This document shows, piece after piece, positions 3,019-52,550 of a stretch of 64,000 bases of DNA. The position numbers and the translations under genes are program-made. Location of the stretch: the NCBI RefSeq assembly GCF_024502345.1, contig NZ_JALDNN010000001.1. One strand, 5' to 3'. This stretch comes from Escherichia coli. GTDB lineage: Bacteria; Pseudomonadota; Gammaproteobacteria; Enterobacterales; Enterobacteriaceae. The notes beneath the pieces were generated by a model, which ran no database searches, had not been told where the DNA came from, and saw only the letters and a program-made list of their open reading frames with translations. Each line of letters starts with the position of its first letter. The first letter of the stretch is position 1.

Positions 3019-5469
<2,451 letters not shown>

Positions 5470-43361: not shown

Positions 43362-44759
43362 ATTTTTACCCGAGTCGCTAATTTTTGCCGCAAGGTGCTA
43401 AGCCGCGAGGAAAGCGAGGCTGAACAGGCAGTCGCCCGTCCACAGGTGACGGTGATCCCGCGTGAGCAGCATGCTATTTCCCGCAAAGATATCAGTGAAA
43501 ATGCCCTGAAGGTAATGTACAGGCTCAACAAAGCGGGATACGAAGCCTGGCTGGTTGGCGGCGGCGTGCGCGACCTGTTACTTGGCAAAAAGCCGAAAGA
43601 TTTTGACGTAACCACTAACGCCACGCCTGAGCAGGTGCGCAAACTGTTCCGTAACTGCCGCCTGGTGGGTCGCCGTTTCCGTCTGGCTCATGTAATGTTT
43701 GGCCCGGAGATTATCGAAGTTGCGACCTTCCGTGGACACCACGAAGGTAACGTCAGCGACCGCACGACCTCCCAACGCGGGCAAAACGGCATGTTGCTGC
43801 GCGACAACATTTTCGGCTCCATCGAAGAAGACGCCCAGCGCCGCGATTTCACTATCAACAGCCTCTATTACAGCGTAGCGGATTTTACCGTCCGTGATTA
43901 CGTTGGCGGTATGAAGGATCTGAAGGACGGCGTTATCCGTCTGATTGGTAACCCGGAAACGCGCTACCGTGAAGATCCGGTACGTATGCTGCGCGCGGTA
44001 CGTTTTGCCGCCAAATTGGGTATGCGCATCAGCCCGGAAACCGCAGAACCGATCCCTCGCCTCGCTACCCTGTTGAACGATATCCCACCGGCACGCCTGT
44101 TTGAAGAATCGCTTAAACTGCTACAAGCGGGCTACGGTTACGATACCTATAAGCTGTTGTGTGAATATCATCTGTTCCAGCCGCTGTTCCCGACCATTAC
44201 CCGCTACTTCACGGAAAATGGCGACAGCCCGATGGAGCGGATCATTGAACAGGTGCTGAAGAATACCGATACGCGTATCCATAACGATATGCGCGTGAAC
44301 CCGGCGTTCCTGTTTGCCGCCATGTTCTGGTACCCACTGCTGGAGACGGCACAGAAGATTGCCCAGGAAAGCGGCCTGACCTATCACGACGCTTTCGCGC
44401 TGGCGATGAACGACGTGCTGGACGAAGCCTGCCGTTCACTGGCAATCCCGAAACGTCTGACGACGTTAACCCGCGATATCTGGCAGTTGCAGTTGCGTAT
44501 GTCCCGTCGTCAGGGTAAACGCGCATGGAAACTGCTGGAGCATCCTAAGTTCCGTGCGGCTTATGACCTGTTGGCCTTGCGAGCTGAAGTTGAACGTAAC
44601 GCTGAACTGCAGCGTCTGGTGAAATGGTGGGGTGAGTTCCAGGTTTCCGCGCCACCAGATCAAAAAGGGATGCTTAACGAGTTGGATGAAGAGCCGTCAC
44701 CGCGTCGCCGTACTCGTCGTCCACGCAAACGCGCACCGCGTCGTGAGGGTACCGCATGA
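43362..44759 (+). CDS. pcnB: poly(A) polymerase I, AUU (ATT) initiation codon
   Basis: 465-aa product if initiation is at ATT 43362..43364 ([11 protein letters not shown]…), the start reported for K-12 pcnB; the ORF track begins at an upstream TTG (43341); stop overlaps the folK start by 4 nt. Confidence 0.88.
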
Positions 44760-45238
44760 CAGTTGCGTATATTGCCATAGGCAGCAATCTGGCCTCTCCG
44801 CTGGAGCAGGTCAATGCTGCCCTGAAAGCATTAGGCGATATCCCTGAAAGCCACATTCTTACCGTTTCTTCGTTTTACCGCACCCCACCGCTGGGGCCGC
44901 AAGATCAACCCGATTACTTAAACGCAGCCGTGGCGCTGGAAACAACACTTGCGCCTGAAGAATTACTTAATCACACACAGCAAATAGAGTTGCAGCAAGG
45001 TCGCGTTCGTAAAGCAGAACGCTGGGGACCGCGCATACTCGATCTTGATATCATGTTGTTTGGTAATGAAACCATTAATACCGAACGACTCACCGTCCCG
45101 CATTACGATATGAAGAATCGCGGCTTTATGCTGTGGCCGCTGTTTGAGATTGCCCCGGAACTCGTGTTTCCTGATGGGGAGACATTACGTGAAATACTCA
45201 CTTCGCTAGCAGTACTACAACCTGCCATCTGGTATTAG
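44756..45238 (+). CDS. folK: 6-hydroxymethyl-7,8-dihydropterin pyrophosphokinase FolK, variant C-terminus
   Basis: 160-aa ORF matching HPPK through about residue 140 (…[13 protein letters not shown]) and then diverging from the K-12 tail as recalled. Confidence 0.9.
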
Positions 45239-45519
45239 CTGTATTATTTTATTTTCTTATCTTACTCCTCACTTCCCCTCTTACAGATTAAATATACTTA
45301 ATTTACATTTTAGTTTTTTTTAATTAATTCATGAAATAGCACTTCATGCAAATAGATTAGGCATTTTTTGTTTAAAAAACCTAGAATAACAACAATTCAA
45401 TACACCACGTAAATATATTCACACAAGTGATACCTCTCCCCCTATTACATCCTTCCCCGACTTTAAGTAATATCCGCTCGCAATATTAATTTCGTATAAT
45501 TTTTGTAAGGATGCATGTA

Positions 45520-46116
45520 ATGAAAAAAGCACTTCTCGCAGCCGCTTTAGTAATGGCTTCTGGTTCCGCCTTGGCTGTAGATGGTGGTCATATCGACTTT
45601 AACGGTATGGTACAGTCCGGTACCTGTAAAGTGGGTGTGGTAGATACCGGTATGCACAGCGTTACCACTGATGGCGTGGTTACCCTGGATACTGCGAATG
45701 TTACTGATACTTTTACTGAAGTAAGTGCAACTGCTGTTGGTTTACTGCCGAAAGAGTTCATGATTTCTGTTGAGTGTGATCCAGGTGCTCCGAAGAATGC
45801 TGAGTTGACTATGGGTTCTGCAAGCTACGCGAACACCAGCGGTACCCTGAATAACAATATGAACATCACTGTTAACGGTATTGCACCGGCTCAGAACGTG
45901 AACATTGCAGTTCATAACATGAAAAACAAAGCTGGCGCTGCTGAAATTAAGCAGGTCCATATGAACAACTCTTCTGAAGTTCAGGAACTGACATTAGACG
46001 CAGAAGGTAAAGGTCAGTACGTGTTTAACGCATCTTACGTTAAAGCACCGAACAGCCCGGCTGTTACTGCTGGTCATGTAACCACTAACGCACTGTACAC
46101 CATTGCTTATAAATAA
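45520..46116 (+). CDS. yadN: fimbrial major subunit (YadN-like, chaperone-usher pilin)
   Basis: 199-aa product from the ATG at 45520 (signal peptide MKKALLAAALVMASGSALA; an SD-like TAAGG lies 9 nt upstream); C-terminal pilin strand …YTIAYK; first gene of the operon. Confidence 0.8.
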   Translation: MKKALLAAALVMASGSALAVDGGHIDFNGMVQSGTCKVGVVDTGMHSVTTDGVVTLDTANVTDTFTEVSATAVGLLPKEFMISVECDPGAPKNAELTMGSASYANTSGTLNNNMNITVNGIAPAQNVNIAVHNMKNKAGAAEIKQVHMNNSSEVQELTLDAEGKGQYVFNASYVKAPNSPAVTAGHVTTNALYTIAYK

Positions 46117-46202
46117 TTAATGGTGTGTTGAGCATAAGGTTTGCCGCCAGGCAGACCTTATTTTCGCTAATTTAATCTTTCTACAGACAGCAAGGAGTGC
46201 TT

Positions 46203-46928
46203 ATGTTTCCCTTGGTTAAAAAAACGGTTAGTGCATTATTTGTAAGTACTCTGTTAGCCAGTGCGCCTGCATTCGCTGACATTATTATTTCCGGAACTCG
46301 TATCATTTATAACGCTGATAAAAAAGATGTTAACGTTCGTCTGGAAAATAAAGGGAATCGCCCCTTACTGATTCAGAACTGGTTGGATACTGGCGACGAC
46401 AATGCCGATCCCAGCCAGATCAAAGTGCCATTTACCTCTACGCCGCCTGTTTCACGCGTTGAGCCAAAACGCGGTCAAACCGTAAAAGTGATGTACACCG
46501 GTGCAACAGCCCTGCCTAAAGACCGGGAAAGTGTCTACTGGTTTAACGTGCTGGAAGTGCCGCCTAAGCCGAAAGATGCTGAGTCTGACAAAAACTTATT
46601 ACAATTGGCTTTCCGCACACGCATCAAACTCTTTTATCGCCCGAGCGGTTTACAGGGAGAACCGGCTGAAGCACCGGCGAAAATCACCTGGAAATTAAAC
46701 AACGCTCAGTTACAGGCAAATAACCCAACGCCATATTACGTGTCCTTTAATGAGGTCAAGCTGGAAAGTGGCGGCAAAACCTACAACGTCAATTCCAGCA
46801 TGGTCGCGCCGTTCAGCCAGGCAAGCTTTCGCGTAACCGGTCTACCAGGAAGCGTTTCATCCGGGAAAGTGATCTTTAAAGCGATCAACGACTTTGGCGG
46901 CAACATCGATGGTTCCGCAACATTGTAA
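46203..46928 (+). CDS. yadV: fimbrial periplasmic chaperone (PapD-like; EcpD/YadV-like)
   Basis: ATG at 46203 preceded by AAGGAG at 5-nt spacing; PapD-like chaperone sequence with the conserved block WFNVLEVPPKP…LLQLAFRTRIKLFYRP. Confidence 0.85.
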   Translation: MFPLVKKTVSALFVSTLLASAPAFADIIISGTRIIYNADKKDVNVRLENKGNRPLLIQNWLDTGDDNADPSQIKVPFTSTPPVSRVEPKRGQTVKVMYTGATALPKDRESVYWFNVLEVPPKPKDAESDKNLLQLAFRTRIKLFYRPSGLQGEPAEAPAKITWKLNNAQLQANNPTPYYVSFNEVKLESGGKTYNVNSSMVAPFSQASFRVTGLPGSVSSGKVIFKAINDFGGNIDGSATL

Positions 46929-46969
46929 AAAATAAACGGATTCTTTTTAACATCGCCAGGAATGCAACC

Positions 46970-49570
46970 TTGTACCAGTTTACTCATCAAATAAGCCGTA
47001 TCCCGAAAAAAACGCTACTTGCGGCCTGTTGTGCCCTGTTTTATAGCAGCAACGGTGCTGCGGCAGACACGGTGGAATATGACAGTTCCTTCTTAATGGG
47101 AACTGGCGCATCAACGATTGATGTTAAACGTTATGCTCAAGGCAACCCGACACCCCCGGGCCTCTATAATGTCCGCGTGTTTGTAAACGGTCAGGCGACG
47201 TCCAGCTTAGAAATTCCGTTTGTGGATATTGGCGAAGCCAGCGCAGCGGCCTGTATTACCCACAAAAACCTGGCGCAACTCCACATAAAGCAACCTGAAC
47301 AGCCTGTCACTTTACTCGCCAGAGAAGGTGAAGAAGAGGATTGTCTGGATTTGGCAAAGTCATACGAAAAGGCGGATGTGCGCTTTGACGGCAGTGACCA
47401 GTTTCTCGATCTGACTATTCCTCAGGCCTATGTTCTGAAAAACTACGGTGGTTATGTCGACCCCTCACTGTGGGAGTCAGGGATTAACGCTGCCACACTG
47501 GCATATACCCTGAACGCCTATCATACAAGTTCAAATAACGACAATAGTGACAGCGCCTATGGCGCATTTAACTCAGGTATCAATTTAGGAGCCTGGCACT
47601 TCCGTGCGCGCGGTAACTATAACTGGACAACAGATAACGGCAGCGATTTCGATTTCCAGGATCGTTACTTACAGCGTGACATTCCGGCAATCCGTTCACA
47701 GATAATTATGGGTGATGCCTATACCACCGGTGAAACATTTGACTCTGTCAACGTCCGCGGCGTTCGCCTGTACAGCGATAGCCGTATGCTGCCTTCGGCG
47801 CTGGCCAGTTACGCTCCGACCATCCGCGGTGTAGCAAACTCCAACGCCAAAGTCACCGTGACGCAAAGCGGTTATAAAATCTATGAAACCACCGTACCAC
47901 CCGGTGAATTTGTTATAGACGACATTAGCCCCTCCGGCTTTGGTAGCGAACTGGTCGTGACCATTGAAGAAGCGGATGGTTCCAAACGCACCTTTACGCA
48001 ACCCTTCTCGTCGGTTGTACAAATGCAACGTCCTGGTGTGGGCCGTTGGGATTTCAGCGCGGGTAAAGTCATTGATGACAGTCTGCGATCCGAACCCAAT
48101 ATGGGACAAGCCTCTTATTACTATGGTCTGAATAACCTCTTCACGGGTTATACCGGTATTCAGTTCACCGATAATAACTATCTTGCCGGGCTGTTAGGTG
48201 TGGGTATCAACACCAGCATCGGTGCCTTTGCGGTAGACGTTACCCATTCCCGTGCTGAAATTCCGGATGATAAAACCTACCAGGGGCAAAGTTATCGCGT
48301 GACCTGGAACAAATTATTCCAGGATACCGGGACATCATTTAACCTCGCGGCGTACCGCTATTCCACCCAAGATTACCTGGGCCTGCATGATGCGTTAGTC
48401 CTCATTGACGACGCCAAACATTTGTCTGCCGATGAAGACAAAAACACCATGCAGACGTACTCACGTATGAAAAACCAGTTTACCGTCAGCATCAACCAGC
48501 CGCTGAAAACGACTTACGAAGATTACGGTTCACTGTTTATTTCTGGTAGCTGGACGGATTACTGGGCGGCGAACAATAGCCGCACTGAATATAATGTTGG
48601 TTACAGTAAAAGCGTTTCGTGGGGCAGTTTCAGCGTCAACCTGCAACGTAGCTGGAATGAAGACGGCGAGAAAGATGACGCGATGTACGTCAGCGTTAGC
48701 GTACCTATTGAGAATATTTTAGGTGGCAAACGTAAGTCTTCTGGTTTCCGCAATTTAAATACTCAGCTCAATACCGATTTCGATGGTTCACATCAGTTGA
48801 ATGTTAACAGTTCCGGTAACACTGAAAACAATCTGGTGAACTACAGTGTCAACGCAGGTTATAGCCTCGATAAAAACTCCGGCGATTTAGCCTCTGTTGG
48901 TGGTTATCTCAACTATGAATCAGGGTTAGGCGGTATTTCCGCTTCGGCCTCGGCCACTTCGGATAACAGCCAACAGTACTCCATCTCCACCGATGGAGGC
49001 TTTGTATTACACAGTGGTGGTTTAACGTTCACTAACAACAGTTTCAGCAGTAACGACACGCTGGTGTTAATCAACGCCCCAGGTGCTAAAGGCGCACGAA
49101 TCAATAACAGTAATAACGAAATCGATCGCTGGGGATATGCCGTGACGTCCTCTGTCAGCCCCTACCGTGAAAACCGGGTAGGTCTGAACATTGAAACACT
49201 GGAAAACGATGTTGAACTGAAAAGTACCAGCGCCACCACCGTACCACGTAGCGGCTCCGTTGTTTTGACCCGGTTCGAAACTGACGAGGGGCGTTCTGTC
49301 GTGCTGAATATTACTGCCGCCAATGGCAAATCTATTCCGTTTGCTGCGGAGGTTTACCAGGATGACGTGATGATCGGCAGCATGGGCCAGGGTGGTCAGG
49401 CATTTGTGCGCGGTATTAACGACAGCGGGGAATTAATCGTGCGTTGGTATGAAAACAACCAAACCATTGACTGTAAGTTGCACTACCAGTTCCCGGCCCA
49501 GCCACAAACGCTGGGAAGTACCAACACCTTATTACTTAATAATCTTACCTGTCAGGTAGCAAATCACTAA
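46970..49570 (+). CDS. htrE: fimbrial outer membrane usher (HtrE-like)
   Basis: 866-aa ORF, TTG start, usher-family length and sequence blocks (…RMLPSALASYAPTIRGVANSNAKVTVTQSGYKIYETTVPPG…). Confidence 0.88.
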   Translation: MYQFTHQISRIPKKTLLAACCALFYSSNGAAADTVEYDSSFLMGTGASTIDVKRYAQGNPTPPGLYNVRVFVNGQATSSLEIPFVDIGEASAAACITHKNLAQLHIKQPEQPVTLLAREGEEEDCLDLAKSYEKADVRFDGSDQFLDLTIPQAYVLKNYGGYVDPSLWESGINAATLAYTLNAYHTSSNNDNSDSAYGAFNSGINLGAWHFRARGNYNWTTDNGSDFDFQDRYLQRDIPAIRSQIIMGDAYTTGETFDSVNVRGVRLYSDSRMLPSALASYAPTIRGVANSNAKVTVTQSGYKIYETTVPPGEFVIDDISPSGFGSELVVTIEEADGSKRTFTQPFSSVVQMQRPGVGRWDFSAGKVIDDSLRSEPNMGQASYYYGLNNLFTGYTGIQFTDNNYLAGLLGVGINTSIGAFAVDVTHSRAEIPDDKTYQGQSYRVTWNKLFQDTGTSFNLAAYRYSTQDYLGLHDALVLIDDAKHLSADEDKNTMQTYSRMKNQFTVSINQPLKTTYEDYGSLFISGSWTDYWAANNSRTEYNVGYSKSVSWGSFSVNLQRSWNEDGEKDDAMYVSVSVPIENILGGKRKSSGFRNLNTQLNTDFDGSHQLNVNSSGNTENNLVNYSVNAGYSLDKNSGDLASVGGYLNYESGLGGISASASATSDNSQQYSISTDGGFVLHSGGLTFTNNSFSSNDTLVLINAPGAKGARINNSNNEIDRWGYAVTSSVSPYRENRVGLNIETLENDVELKSTSATTVPRSGSVVLTRFETDEGRSVVLNITAANGKSIPFAAEVYQDDVMIGSMGQGGQAFVRGINDSGELIVRWYENNQTIDCKLHYQFPAQPQTLGSTNTLLLNNLTCQVANH

Positions 49571-49571
49571 T

Positions 49572-50132
49572 ATGGAAAATTCTATGAAAAGGATACTACT
49601 AACATCCGCGTTAATAGGCCTGGGTTTACCGGCGGTTGGCTCTGCAACAGATCTTAATGTCGATTTTACGGCCACCGTATTAGCCACCACCTGCACGATA
49701 ACTATCGTACAAGATGGTGGCCCAGTAGTGACGGGTAGTAACGGTGAATATAGCCTGACAATTCCCGATGTTGGCCTGGATAAAGTTATAACTGGAGATG
49801 TTGCAGCTCAAGCCAACTTTAAATTACTGGCTTCCGATTGCAGCAATGGTTACTCAAAGATTTTTACCACACTTACAGGTGCATCTGTTTCAGGTAAGTT
49901 GATTGTCAATGAAGCAAGCTCTGGCGCTACTGGTGTGGGTATGGGGATTAAGCGTAGAGATACCGCAGACTCAACTTTCTTTACACCCAATAATACTGAC
50001 AAATTTGAATGGACCACCGATGAGAAAGCTAACGGTGTGCCTCTAACCGTAGCACTGCGCGAAACAACGGCGGGAGCAGGACGCACCGGTGCGTTTCAGG
50101 CAAAAGCCACCTTTAACTTCACCTACGAATAA
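49572..50132 (+). CDS. yadM: fimbrial minor subunit (YadM-like)
   Basis: 186-aa ORF with signal peptide, a Cys pair and C-terminal …ATFNFTYE pilin donor-strand motif; second ATG at 49584 possible. Confidence 0.78.
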   Translation: MENSMKRILLTSALIGLGLPAVGSATDLNVDFTATVLATTCTITIVQDGGPVVTGSNGEYSLTIPDVGLDKVITGDVAAQANFKLLASDCSNGYSKIFTTLTGASVSGKLIVNEASSGATGVGMGIKRRDTADSTFFTPNNTDKFEWTTDEKANGVPLTVALRETTAGAGRTGAFQAKATFNFTYE

Positions 50133-50146
50133 CAGGGACAGCCACC

Positions 50147-50758
50147 ATGAAATTAAAAGTCATCGCTACACTGATTGCCACTGTTGCCGTGGGTGCCAGC
50201 GTTAGCAACAATCTCGCTTATGCGGGTACGACATCCGCCTCTTTAACCGTAAACAGTAACCTGACTATGGGTACCTGTAGTGCGAAGATACTGGATACCA
50301 GTGATACCGTGACCGATACCGTTGCCTTTAACAATGTTTATATTTCTGAACTGGCAGCCAAAAGCAAGGTACAACCATTTAAAATCCGTTTCAGCGATTG
50401 CGCCGGTCTTCCAGGAAAAAGTGCTCAACTCGTATTGGCACCCAAAGGTATCGGTTGCGCTGGCGGCATGTCTAACACTGCCGGCTTTGCAAATAAACTT
50501 AACTCCACCACCGAAGGTGGTTCAAGCGGAGCAGCTGTCGAAGTATGGACGACTACGACCCCCGGGGGAAGTGGCAGTAAGCAATTCAGTTGCATTCAGC
50601 GAAACGTCGTCAATGTCGATCTTTCTAATGCCAGCACAACACAGCCTTATGATTTCGATTTAAGCGCGCGGATGATTCTCGCTGAAGGGAGAACGGTTAA
50701 TGATGCATTACCGGGTAGTTTCCTCTCTCCTACGACTTTCACAATCACTTATCAGTAA
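50147..50758 (+). CDS. yadL: fimbrial minor subunit (YadL-like)
   Basis: 203-aa ORF with signal peptide and C-terminal …TTFTITYQ. Confidence 0.78.
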   Translation: MKLKVIATLIATVAVGASVSNNLAYAGTTSASLTVNSNLTMGTCSAKILDTSDTVTDTVAFNNVYISELAAKSKVQPFKIRFSDCAGLPGKSAQLVLAPKGIGCAGGMSNTAGFANKLNSTTEGGSSGAAVEVWTTTTPGGSGSKQFSCIQRNVVNVDLSNASTTQPYDFDLSARMILAEGRTVNDALPGSFLSPTTFTITYQ

Positions 50759-50778
50759 TAGCGGATAAGGATATTAGA

Positions 50779-51369
50779 ATGCTATGCAGGCATCATAAAT
50801 TTGTACGCTTTTTGGGGCTGGTAACAGCCCTCGTTACGCCTTTTGCCTATGCTGGCCAGGATGTGAATCTCACCGCGCAGATTGTGGCCAGTACCTGTCA
50901 GGTTGAAGTCAGTAATAATGGCGTTGTCGATCTCGGCACAGTGACGCTGGACTATTTTGCTGACAATGTGACCCCGACAACGGATTATGCGGGTGGCAAA
51001 ACGTTTAATGTTAATGTGGTCTCTTGCGATAACATTCAAACGACACAGTCGCAAATGAAATTAGATTTTCAGCCGCAGGCGGGATCGCTTGCGCAGGTGA
51101 ATAATCAAATTTTTAGTAATGAATATGAACAGCAGGCTACCGGGGCGAAAAACGTCGGCATTGTGATATTTTCGGCCCAGCCGAATCAGCAGACATTTAA
51201 CGTGCGAGGAACGGATGGTTCCTCAACAGCAATTTATTCGGTCGCGCCTGGCAACGCTGCTCCCTCAACCTGGACCTTTTATTCCCGTATGCAACGGGTG
51301 AATAATGCCCTTCCTCCTGAATCGGGAATGGTGAGAAGCCAGGTTATTGTTAATGTATCTTATGAATAA
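50779..51369 (+). CDS. yadK: fimbrial minor subunit (YadK-like)
   Basis: 196-aa ORF; SD-like TAAGGA 7 nt upstream; C-terminal …VIVNVSYE. Confidence 0.78.
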   Translation: MLCRHHKFVRFLGLVTALVTPFAYAGQDVNLTAQIVASTCQVEVSNNGVVDLGTVTLDYFADNVTPTTDYAGGKTFNVNVVSCDNIQTTQSQMKLDFQPQAGSLAQVNNQIFSNEYEQQATGAKNVGIVIFSAQPNQQTFNVRGTDGSSTAIYSVAPGNAAPSTWTFYSRMQRVNNALPPESGMVRSQVIVNVSYE

Positions 51370-51380
51370 TAAGGATAATT

Positions 51381-52493
51381 ATGCAAAGGAAAGGCAATAA
51401 ACTGTTAATTCAGTTATGCAGTGCGATACTGCTATTTTTTACCACATCCTGGTATGCATTGGCGACTGAATGTTATATAGAGAGCAATGCTGCAGGGGCT
51501 TATGATATTGTTATAAACCCAACTCCCTTCAGTATACAGTCAGCGATGGTCACAGTCCCGGAGGAAATATCTTTCGCGGCCTCGGATGTTCATATTGACC
51601 TTCGAGGGGATAAGATTGGCTGTAAATCCTTAGGTAGTAACACAAGCGCGGTACATTTTCTTAATACTGCTGATGCCAGTAACATATCTACCTACACTGA
51701 CAGTCACGGTAATGGTTTATTGAAAACAACCGTTACGGGTATTGTTTATTCAGTAGAATTACAATGTAGAAATTGTGGAGCCGCGGAGGATCTTAGTTTG
51801 ATGCTTCCAGCACAAAGCGGTGGAGATAATCATACAAGCAACTCTGATACAAAGTGGGCCTATGAGTATAGTGACGATAGCTGGTATTTACGATTTCGTT
51901 TTTTCTGGACCCCGGAATATAAACCCCAAAATGGGGTTTCAGAAGGATTTGCGATACCAGGTAAAATAGCCTCCTGGTATATAGGCAATGAGAATCAACC
52001 ATGGATAAATTTTTTCGTTGATACAAGCTCCCTGCATTTTTACGTGGAGGAACCCACCTGTCAAACAGTTGCCCTGGCACAAGATCAGGGTAATGTCAGC
52101 GGCAACCAGGTAACGCTTGGGAACAACTATGTTTCGGAAGTGAAAAATGGGCTTACGCGGGAAATTCCTTTTGCCATCCGCGCTGAATACTGTTATGCCA
52201 GTAAGATTACGGTTAAGTTGAAAGCGGCAAATAAGCCCAGCGACGCCACTCTGGTAGGTAAAACAACGGGCTCTGCTTCAGGCGTGGCTGTAAAAGTGCA
52301 TTCAACTTACGAAGACAGCAAAGTATTGTTAAAAGCAGATGGTAGCAACACGGTTGACTACAACTTCGCAATCTGGTCAAACAACCTGCTGAATTTGCCC
52401 TTTACGGCACAGTTGGTACCGGATGGCAGTGGTAATGCAGTCGGTGTTGGAACATTTTCAGGAAACGCGACCTTCTCCTTTACCTACGAATAA
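51381..52493 (+). CDS. yadC: fimbrial tip adhesin (YadC-like, two-domain)
   Basis: 370-aa ORF: N-terminal Cys-containing putative receptor-binding domain plus C-terminal pilin domain ending …ATFSFTYE; last gene of the operon. Confidence 0.75.
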   Translation: MQRKGNKLLIQLCSAILLFFTTSWYALATECYIESNAAGAYDIVINPTPFSIQSAMVTVPEEISFAASDVHIDLRGDKIGCKSLGSNTSAVHFLNTADASNISTYTDSHGNGLLKTTVTGIVYSVELQCRNCGAAEDLSLMLPAQSGGDNHTSNSDTKWAYEYSDDSWYLRFRFFWTPEYKPQNGVSEGFAIPGKIASWYIGNENQPWINFFVDTSSLHFYVEEPTCQTVALAQDQGNVSGNQVTLGNNYVSEVKNGLTREIPFAIRAEYCYASKITVKLKAANKPSDATLVGKTTGSASGVAVKVHSTYEDSKVLLKADGSNTVDYNFAIWSNNLLNLPFTAQLVPDGSGNAVGVGTFSGNATFSFTYE

Positions 52494-52516: not shown

Positions 52517-52550
52517 CGCACCAGAGTTCTGCTCTGGTGCGAACGTTTTC
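52517..52550 (+). terminator. putative terminator after the fimbrial operon
   Basis: Hairpin CGCACCAGAG-ttct-GCTCTGGTGCG followed by AACGTTTTC. Confidence 0.45.

Follow-up and report, generated by a model that had tools for sequence, protein, structure and literature searches.

The 3' end of folK probably forms the edge of an old fimbrial islet, of which whole-segment alleles are exchanged between Escherichia coli lineages by homologous recombination while the weakly constrained FolK tail travels along. In the scenario that we favor, a gamma4-type chaperone-usher operon would have entered the ~120-bp folK-panB spacer in the distant past. E. coli would now hold two deep whole-segment allele families, namely the K-12/B1/B2 'Yad' family and the O157 'Yad/locus 2' type, the latter being the one found in the window (the whole stretch of 64,000 nucleotides analyzed here). 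The window family would have relatives in the E. albertii and E. whittamii operons and in a Salmonella operon located at this site. Lineages would swap these alleles via RecA-type homologous recombination, with crossovers resolving in the nearest conserved DNA, i.e. on the left side the part of folK that is under strong constraint and extends to the FPDG codons. The last 17 FolK codons appear weakly constrained (L144, L148 and the terminal Trp) and, for that reason, would drift or be replaced along with the neighboring non-coding DNA and accompany the fimbrial allele. In the window, the imported or retained block would extend to folK codon 63 on one side and spill into panB and panC on the other. 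The 281-bp spacer would serve as promoter and leader of the operon and is a predicted H-NS target, comparable in this to the K-12 and ExPEC spacers, which are analogous but not homologous to it.

Organization of the locus

All genes of the locus lie on the + strand in the order dksA-gluQ-pcnB-folK, seven-gene chaperone-usher fimbrial operon, panB-panC (ORF list of the window). The segments from folK to the end of the operon are as follows.

44756..45238, + strand: folK (HPPK), 160 aa, from the ORF list and the RefSeq annotation of near-identical genomes; 4-nt overlap with the pcnB stop
44765..44943, + strand: folK codons 4-62, identical to K-12 (0 mismatches in 179 nt); the outer breakpoint of the window's allele is at the 3' edge
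44944..45166, + strand: folK codons 63-137, deep 'D/E-type' allele; ~16% nt divergence from K-12 and B2, nearly all of it synonymous
45167..45190, + strand: switch interval, codons 138-146 (...FPDGETLR), from a four-way alignment
45182..45238, + strand: variable FolK tail, codons 143-160 and stop; only L144, L148 and W159 conserved among 28 FolK sequences
45233..45238, + strand: TAT TAG at the end of folK; TGG TAT TAG in the window and O157, TGG TAA TAG in O145 and XH990
45239..45519, + strand: AT-rich spacer, leader/promoter region of the fimbrial operon, 281 bp, 28.8% GC
45520..46116, + strand: fimbrial major subunit, counterpart of YadN, from the ORF list and the RefSeq annotation of near-identical genomes
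46203..52493, + strand: remainder of the seven-gene operon, with the chaperone (to 46928), the usher (46970-49570), three minor subunits and the adhesin (51381-52493)

The start of the major subunit was set at the ATG at 45520, as RefSeq has it in near-identical genomes. Its product shared 39% amino acid identity with K-12 YadN, 85% with the E. albertii counterpart and 98% with that of O157. For the usher, the corresponding values were 60% (K-12 HtrE), 89% and 98%. The second minor subunit and the N-terminal half of the adhesin (50156-50756 and 51456-52056) were 25-39% divergent from O157 at the nucleotide level, versus only 2-9% for the usher and chaperone, and look like cassette-type replacements within the operon. 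In the duck isolate E. coli a7, an IS1 interrupts the major-subunit/chaperone region of the same operon type (window-equivalent 45520-46928).

A variable tail on a conserved enzyme

FolK residues 1-141 were mostly invariant or nearly so among 28 homologues, i.e. the HPPK catalytic core is conserved. The best match among solved structures in the PDB was E. coli HPPK (E = 6e-94), aligned over residues 1-152 only. An AlphaFold2 model, built on the shallow 28-sequence alignment (pLDDT 56), was too poor to show more of the tail than a hinted helix at 144-150.

K-12 FolK (W3110 record) is 159 aa long with the C-terminal end ...FPDGEMLRQILHTRAFDKLNKW, and the K-12 tail letters compared with the window are ...EMLRQILHTRAFDKLNKW. 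The initial annotation, according to which K-12 FolK ends differently, was right on this point: 12 of the 17 last aligned residues differ and, across lineages, tail and spacer were neither identical to K-12 nor conserved between strains. At the nucleotide level, the window and K-12 tails differed by 51%, which matches the neutral expectation since neutral sites differ by roughly half at dS ~1. The tail had a dN of 0.74 in the comparison with K-12 and of 0.29 in that with Salmonella. The protein database contained more than 40 variants of the tail, all nearly equal in length.

The window tail aligned in frame with the Salmonella and C. koseri tails at 39% nucleotide difference, the same as between those two genera. 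The K-12-family tails differed from Salmonella/Citrobacter tails by 55-76%: 55-65% for K-12, and 67-76% for B2 and SCPM, which is about the level of unrelated sequence. Because the window tail still aligns with the ancestral one, it is the K-12 tail that stands out as odd. The window tail is thus a diverged ancestral tail and the K-12 family tail (xFxxLxKW, 22-35% GC) the rewritten one. The additional residue Y160 arose by conversion of the ancestral TAA stop into TAT (Tyr), with the back-up TAG next in frame.

The AT-rich spacer

The gap of about 280 bp between folK and the fimbrial genes had been described as very AT-rich with long A/T runs, and the measurements bore this out. The window as a whole has 51.3% GC, and the spacer has the lowest GC of any stretch of such length; 281-bp windows with a GC as low made up 0.03% of the 64 kb and all overlapped the spacer. 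Its A/T runs reach 8-16 nt, and the string quoted in the initial annotation lies at 45308-45340. TATAAT-like hexamers (at least 5/6 match) numbered 10 in the spacer versus a window-wide mean of 1.4; in a promoter scan of the spacer, the number of sites was not above that of shuffled sequence. The following features were distinguished in it.

45249..45258, + strand: single copy of TTATTTTCTT, scar of a 59-bp deletion between 10-bp direct repeats
45358..45387, + strand: candidate sigma-70 promoter TAGGCA-18-TAGAAT (prediction; 9/12 consensus match)
45424..45462, + strand: ~12 substitutions found in the window sub-lineage only, relative to O157, O145 and XH990
45507..45511, + strand: Shine-Dalgarno AAGGA, 8 nt 5' of the ATG at 45520

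The candidate promoter displayed an invariant -35 and either TAGAAT or TAAAAT as -10 in four D/E-type genomes. The 59-bp deletion (45248/45249, directly 3' of the folK stop) is common to the window and O157; O145 and XH990 retain both copies of TTATTTTCTT and the 49 nt between them. Related spacers were found in O157, O145 and XH990 (89-100%), in E. whittamii (patches of 70-73%) and in E. albertii (proximal 83 nt only). Between window-family and K-12-family spacers no homology was detectable, and the K-12-family spacers aligned among themselves only in patches of 73-85% identity (dust-off blastn). These patches led us to soften the notion that K-12 and B2 spacers are wholly non-homologous 'switched' cassettes. 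A remnant of the ancestral folK-panB spacer was also sought after the window's stop and rejected: the similarity of CCCCTCTT was no better than that of shuffles, and a 15-nt match to the ancestral spacer (p ~0.03 among 36 tests) was dismissed. An Rfam scan of 44700-45700 gave no match, even at E <= 1, no terminator was predicted after folK, and the only small ORFs of the spacer on either strand were unsupported ones of 20-37 aa.

In strain 137, an O157-like cattle isolate, a Mu-like prophage (Mu transposase, Gam and related genes) was found within the folK-fimbrial spacer, at window-equivalent ~45420 and from 9665 onward in the strain's own locus. As the prophage was inserted downstream of the candidate promoter, the operon of this strain is severed from it.

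Repression of yad by H-NS has been shown in K-12, CFT073 and EC958 (PMC13245861). For K-12, a published table also counts the yadN/folK spacer among the promoter islands associated with H-NS (PMC3661553). The spacer of the window is a predicted H-NS target because of its extreme AT content, and silencing of its promoter by H-NS, as proposed by the initial annotation, is plausible from base composition and position. A literature search on H-NS at the O157-type promoter returned nothing specific.

The composition of the tail lends itself to another reading, which we regard as unlikely though worth spelling out: the last ~17 folK codons would double as a distal H-NS/promoter module of the fimbrial operon, be selected for DNA properties such as AT content and curvature, and be swapped with the promoter as a cassette. 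Tail GC is indeed 22-35% in the K-12, B2 and SCPM alleles and 43% in the window, versus 61% on average in species lacking the islet; tail and spacer vary jointly as one unit, and the K-12 promoter island maps to the folK-yadN spacer (PMC3661553). Yet the window tail shows only mild AT enrichment and can still be aligned with the ancestral one, so that selection at the DNA level is unneeded, and weak protein constraint plus linkage accounts for the same facts. If such an overlap did exist, lineage-specific control of Yad-type fimbriae (by temperature, acid or serum) would evolve by swapping a 'tail plus promoter' unit, tolerated by FolK as only the three anchor residues of its tail matter.

Divergence within folK and crossover points

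The 9.4 kb located 5' of the folK block were ~99.5% identical to K-12, with a divergence of about 0.5% in pcnB. Codons 63-142 of folK differed from K-12 at 38 of 240 nt, of which ~7 were protein-changing (dS = 1.05, dN = 0.04), and the alignment with K-12 ended after about 45195. The block differing from K-12 thus starts at 44944 (codon 63) in the window and not in the last 15 codons; the boundary seemed to sit in the tail because purifying selection conceals the synonymous divergence at the protein level. The initial annotation, which had placed a recombination breakpoint in the last ~15 folK codons, was accordingly mistaken for the window itself and correct at the scale of the population, where hybrid genomes switch at codons 138-146. 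It was also correct in counting the FolK tail as part of the variable segment since, in these hybrids, the tail travels with the spacer and operon.

Two further observations concern the immediate surroundings of this block in the window. T94I (ACA to ATA, 45035-45037) is a private change in the conserved HPPK motif GPRTLDLD, being encountered neither in FDAARGOS_944, the closest genome, nor in O157 or any other FolK examined. The 3' end of pcnB contains a patch (44660-44764) with 7 substitutions in 105 nt relative to K-12, six of them within 44656-44755, where the O157-type strain differs too. This patch looks like a small recombination tract of its own, restricted to the window's sub-lineage.

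Population counts were obtained from 5426 complete E. coli genomes. The tail and spacer allele occurred in 419 of them and the operon query was matched in 420, in 418 of these over at least 80% of its length; carriers included O157:H7, O55:H7 and O145:H28. Positions 44944-45238 (codons 63-160) were matched at 99% or more in 325 genomes, and another 95 were hybrids combining a K-12-like folK body with a window-type tail, spacer and operon. Together, the long-block and hybrid genomes make up the about 420 operon carriers. A 60-nt piece only (tail end and spacer start, 98%) matched the hybrid query in F8111-1SC3, with no annotated gene beneath it and no match to the folK body.

Two of the hybrids, O145 RM9467-C1 and XH990, displayed a K-12-like folK body (S64, R76, V106; 3% nucleotide divergence from K-12). 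The switch to the window-type allele fell at codons 138-143 in XH990 (folK nt 411-429, window 45167-45183) and at codons 144-146 in O145 RM9467-C1 (folK nt 432-436, window 45188-45190). As these switch points differ, at least two independent crossovers must have taken place within ~25 nt. Breakpoints by lineage were located at codon 63 (window and O157), at codons 138-143 (XH990), at codons 144-146 (O145) and inside pcnB (bat isolate A3). Mosaic genomes, abrupt changes of divergence and lineage-specific breakpoints were thus all found, as is characteristic of allelic exchange by homologous recombination. As for the long block, phylogroups D and E could have inherited it from their ancestor instead of importing it.

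Bat isolate A3 displayed a 15-21% divergent block that runs from pcnB, of which it covers the 3' two-thirds, into the 5' part of folK (window-equivalent 43856-44950); the isolate carries a B2-type tail and operon. This block may represent another deep import with a different left breakpoint, inside pcnB.

Purely vertical divergence, with a tail evolving fast under relaxed constraint and no junction within folK, would agree with the 51% difference between the window and K-12 tails, close to the neutral level at the dS of ~1 of codons 63-142. It is very improbable and was largely refuted by the hybrids, which join a K-12-like body to the window tail at two different junctions. The step from 0/179 to 16% is abrupt, the K-12 and B2 tails are 43% divergent for a body dS of only 0.36, and the whole region is far more divergent than flanking core genes such as pcnB.

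Insertion history and right end of the segment

One genome per species was scanned across Enterobacteriaceae, which returned 80 folK loci. In 68 species representatives folK and panB were adjacent, 70-131 bp apart; these included Citrobacter, Klebsiella, Enterobacter, Kluyvera, Leclercia, Raoultella, Kosakonia and two Salmonella subspecies. A fimbrial operon separated the two genes in nine representatives, belonging to Escherichia, Pseudocitrobacter and four Citrobacter. The panB promoter (TTGCCC-16-TAGAAT) and ~75 nt 5' of panB were kept in all, window included, and the operon is therefore an insertion between the 3' end of folK and the -35 of panB. The features found at its right end are listed below.

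52518..52540, + strand: GC-rich hairpin 3' of the adhesin gene, right end of the inserted segment
52566..52593, + strand: panB promoter TTGCCC-16-(TG)TAGAAT, conserved across Enterobacteriaceae; the ancestral spacer sequence restarts here

The hairpin is probably the terminator stem of the operon; a simple terminator scan did not call it because it has no T-run. Homology to K-12 restarted 13 nt 5' of panB and continued at 3-13% divergence through panB and panC.

The presence of the islet was associated with the type of FolK tail. The tail motif [A/V/P]x[K/R]PxxW (typically LNAEKPARW) was found in 66 of the 68 adjacent loci versus one of the nine islet loci (Fisher p = 2e-8, a value uncorrected for phylogeny, for non-independent species and a motif defined after the data were seen). 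Both situations occur within Salmonella enterica: the common FolK allele (...LAVEKPASW) has panB as its 3' neighbor and a deviant one (...SAMLKPSHWY) a fimbrial operon behind a spacer of 474 bp and 26% GC. In this deviant allele, folK divergence climbs toward the islet. The Salmonella islet-adjacent FolK also ends in W-Y-stop (TGG TAC TGA; Salmonella locus 4001-4957), in parallel to the one-codon extension of the window. This extension arose independently of Y160.

Prophage e14 brings its own replacement 3' end to icd, and a similar site-specific integration at the 3' end of folK, by an integrase-bearing element with a replacement 3' end, would explain why the tail is rewritten wherever the islet is present with its length (159 aa) and terminal Trp preserved. 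Such an event is hardly credible here. According to the ORF list and annotation, seven fimbrial genes and no integrase or other mobility gene lie between folK and panB, and no displaced folK 3' end was found at the right junction, where the best match (28/60 nt) was at chance level. Flanking direct repeats were not found and, moreover, the window tail is homologous to the ancestral tail.

Phase variation is common among fimbrial operons, and the spacer does contain a few A/T-rich inverted matches; an invertible (fimS-like) or Dam/Lrp methylation (pap-like) switch can nonetheless be set aside, since 45239-45519 contains no GATC (the pap type would have two), the inverted matches are low-complexity A/T runs only (e.g. 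17 nt at 82%), in keeping with the initial annotation, which had seen no flanking inverted repeats suggestive of an invertible switch, no site-specific recombinase ORF occurs between pcnB and panB (ORF list and annotation) nor any PapI/PapB-like regulator gene at the locus (ORF list), and each of the matches listed for the junction query was a single collinear piece.

Significance

Exchange of whole-segment alleles at an islet edge, our preferred interpretation, makes this locus a concrete and datable case of adhesin-locus exchange among E. coli lineages, with junctions located to within a few codons in an essential gene. The C-terminus of K-12 HPPK, a much-studied model enzyme, is moreover atypical for Enterobacteriaceae. 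The 'Yad-negative' strains of phylogroup E and most of phylogroup D have, at the same site, a deep sister allele whose promoter region is its own and unrelated, a point relevant to comparing Yad regulation and to typing schemes. Our literature search found no prior account of mapped folK junctions, of the rule linking tail type to the islet or of the atypical K-12 HPPK tail. These three points are incremental additions, as the operon, the AT-rich H-NS-type promoter and the mosaic flanks are of already known kinds, and ideas on how such loci evolve are unchanged by them.

Comparison with known systems

The Yad/'locus 2' operon of O157:H7 (Z0146-Z0152, ECs0139-ECs0145) occupies the same site and belongs to the same allele family as that of the window. 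It has been expressed and studied (PMC11287998, PMC7098969). Nucleotide identity between the two was 97.6% over the junction from folK to the major subunit and 96% over the major subunit and chaperone. The window differs from O157 by the substitutions at 45424-45462, by its replaced second minor subunit and by the replaced N-terminal half of its adhesin.

K-12/ExPEC Yad (yadN-yadC) shares with the window its site, gene order, gamma4 class and a very AT-rich spacer after folK. Yet the structural proteins are only 39-60% identical, and spacer and FolK tail are non-homologous. A 2026 survey (PMC13245861) scored phylogroup E and most D strains as Yad-negative at an 80% HtrE cut-off, by which the window allele is itself 'Yad-negative' since its usher is 60% identical to K-12 HtrE. 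As the O157 papers call the same locus Yad, a single name designates two deep allele families in the two bodies of literature.

The Salmonella folK-panB fimbrial operon was named Sta by Wurpel et al. (PMC3559732). It resembles the window by its insertion site, its AT-rich spacer (474 bp, 26% GC), the deviant WY-ending tail and the gradient of folK divergence. Its chaperone is also closer to that of the window (67%) than to that of K-12 (55%). In contrast, the major subunits are only 50% identical and the spacers share just their last ~19 nt.

Switched intergenic regions, reportedly described as horizontal regulatory switching by Oren et al. in 2014, display alternative, barely alignable spacers with sharp edges between the same flanking genes, a pattern that the folK-fimbrial locus shows in part. 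Within the K-12 family, flanks are conserved: between K-12 and B2 or SCPM the folK body was 90-97% and yadN 80-97% identical, with a patchily alignable tail and spacer in between. Between the window and the K-12 family, the spacers share no homology and the downstream genes are replaced too. Switched spacers and mosaic flanks beside variable loci are known phenomena (Piggy, PMC5890482). Two differences were nevertheless apparent: the switch reaches here into the coding 3' end of an essential upstream gene, and homology patches persist within each family, which points to hyper-divergence and exchange and not to clean replacement.

The gnd gene beside the O-antigen cluster exemplifies hitch-hiking divergence next to a hypervariable locus. 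As at that locus, core-gene divergence rises toward the variable segment on both sides and mosaic breakpoints are strain-specific. The difference is that, here, the C-terminus of the flanking gene itself has joined the variable segment.
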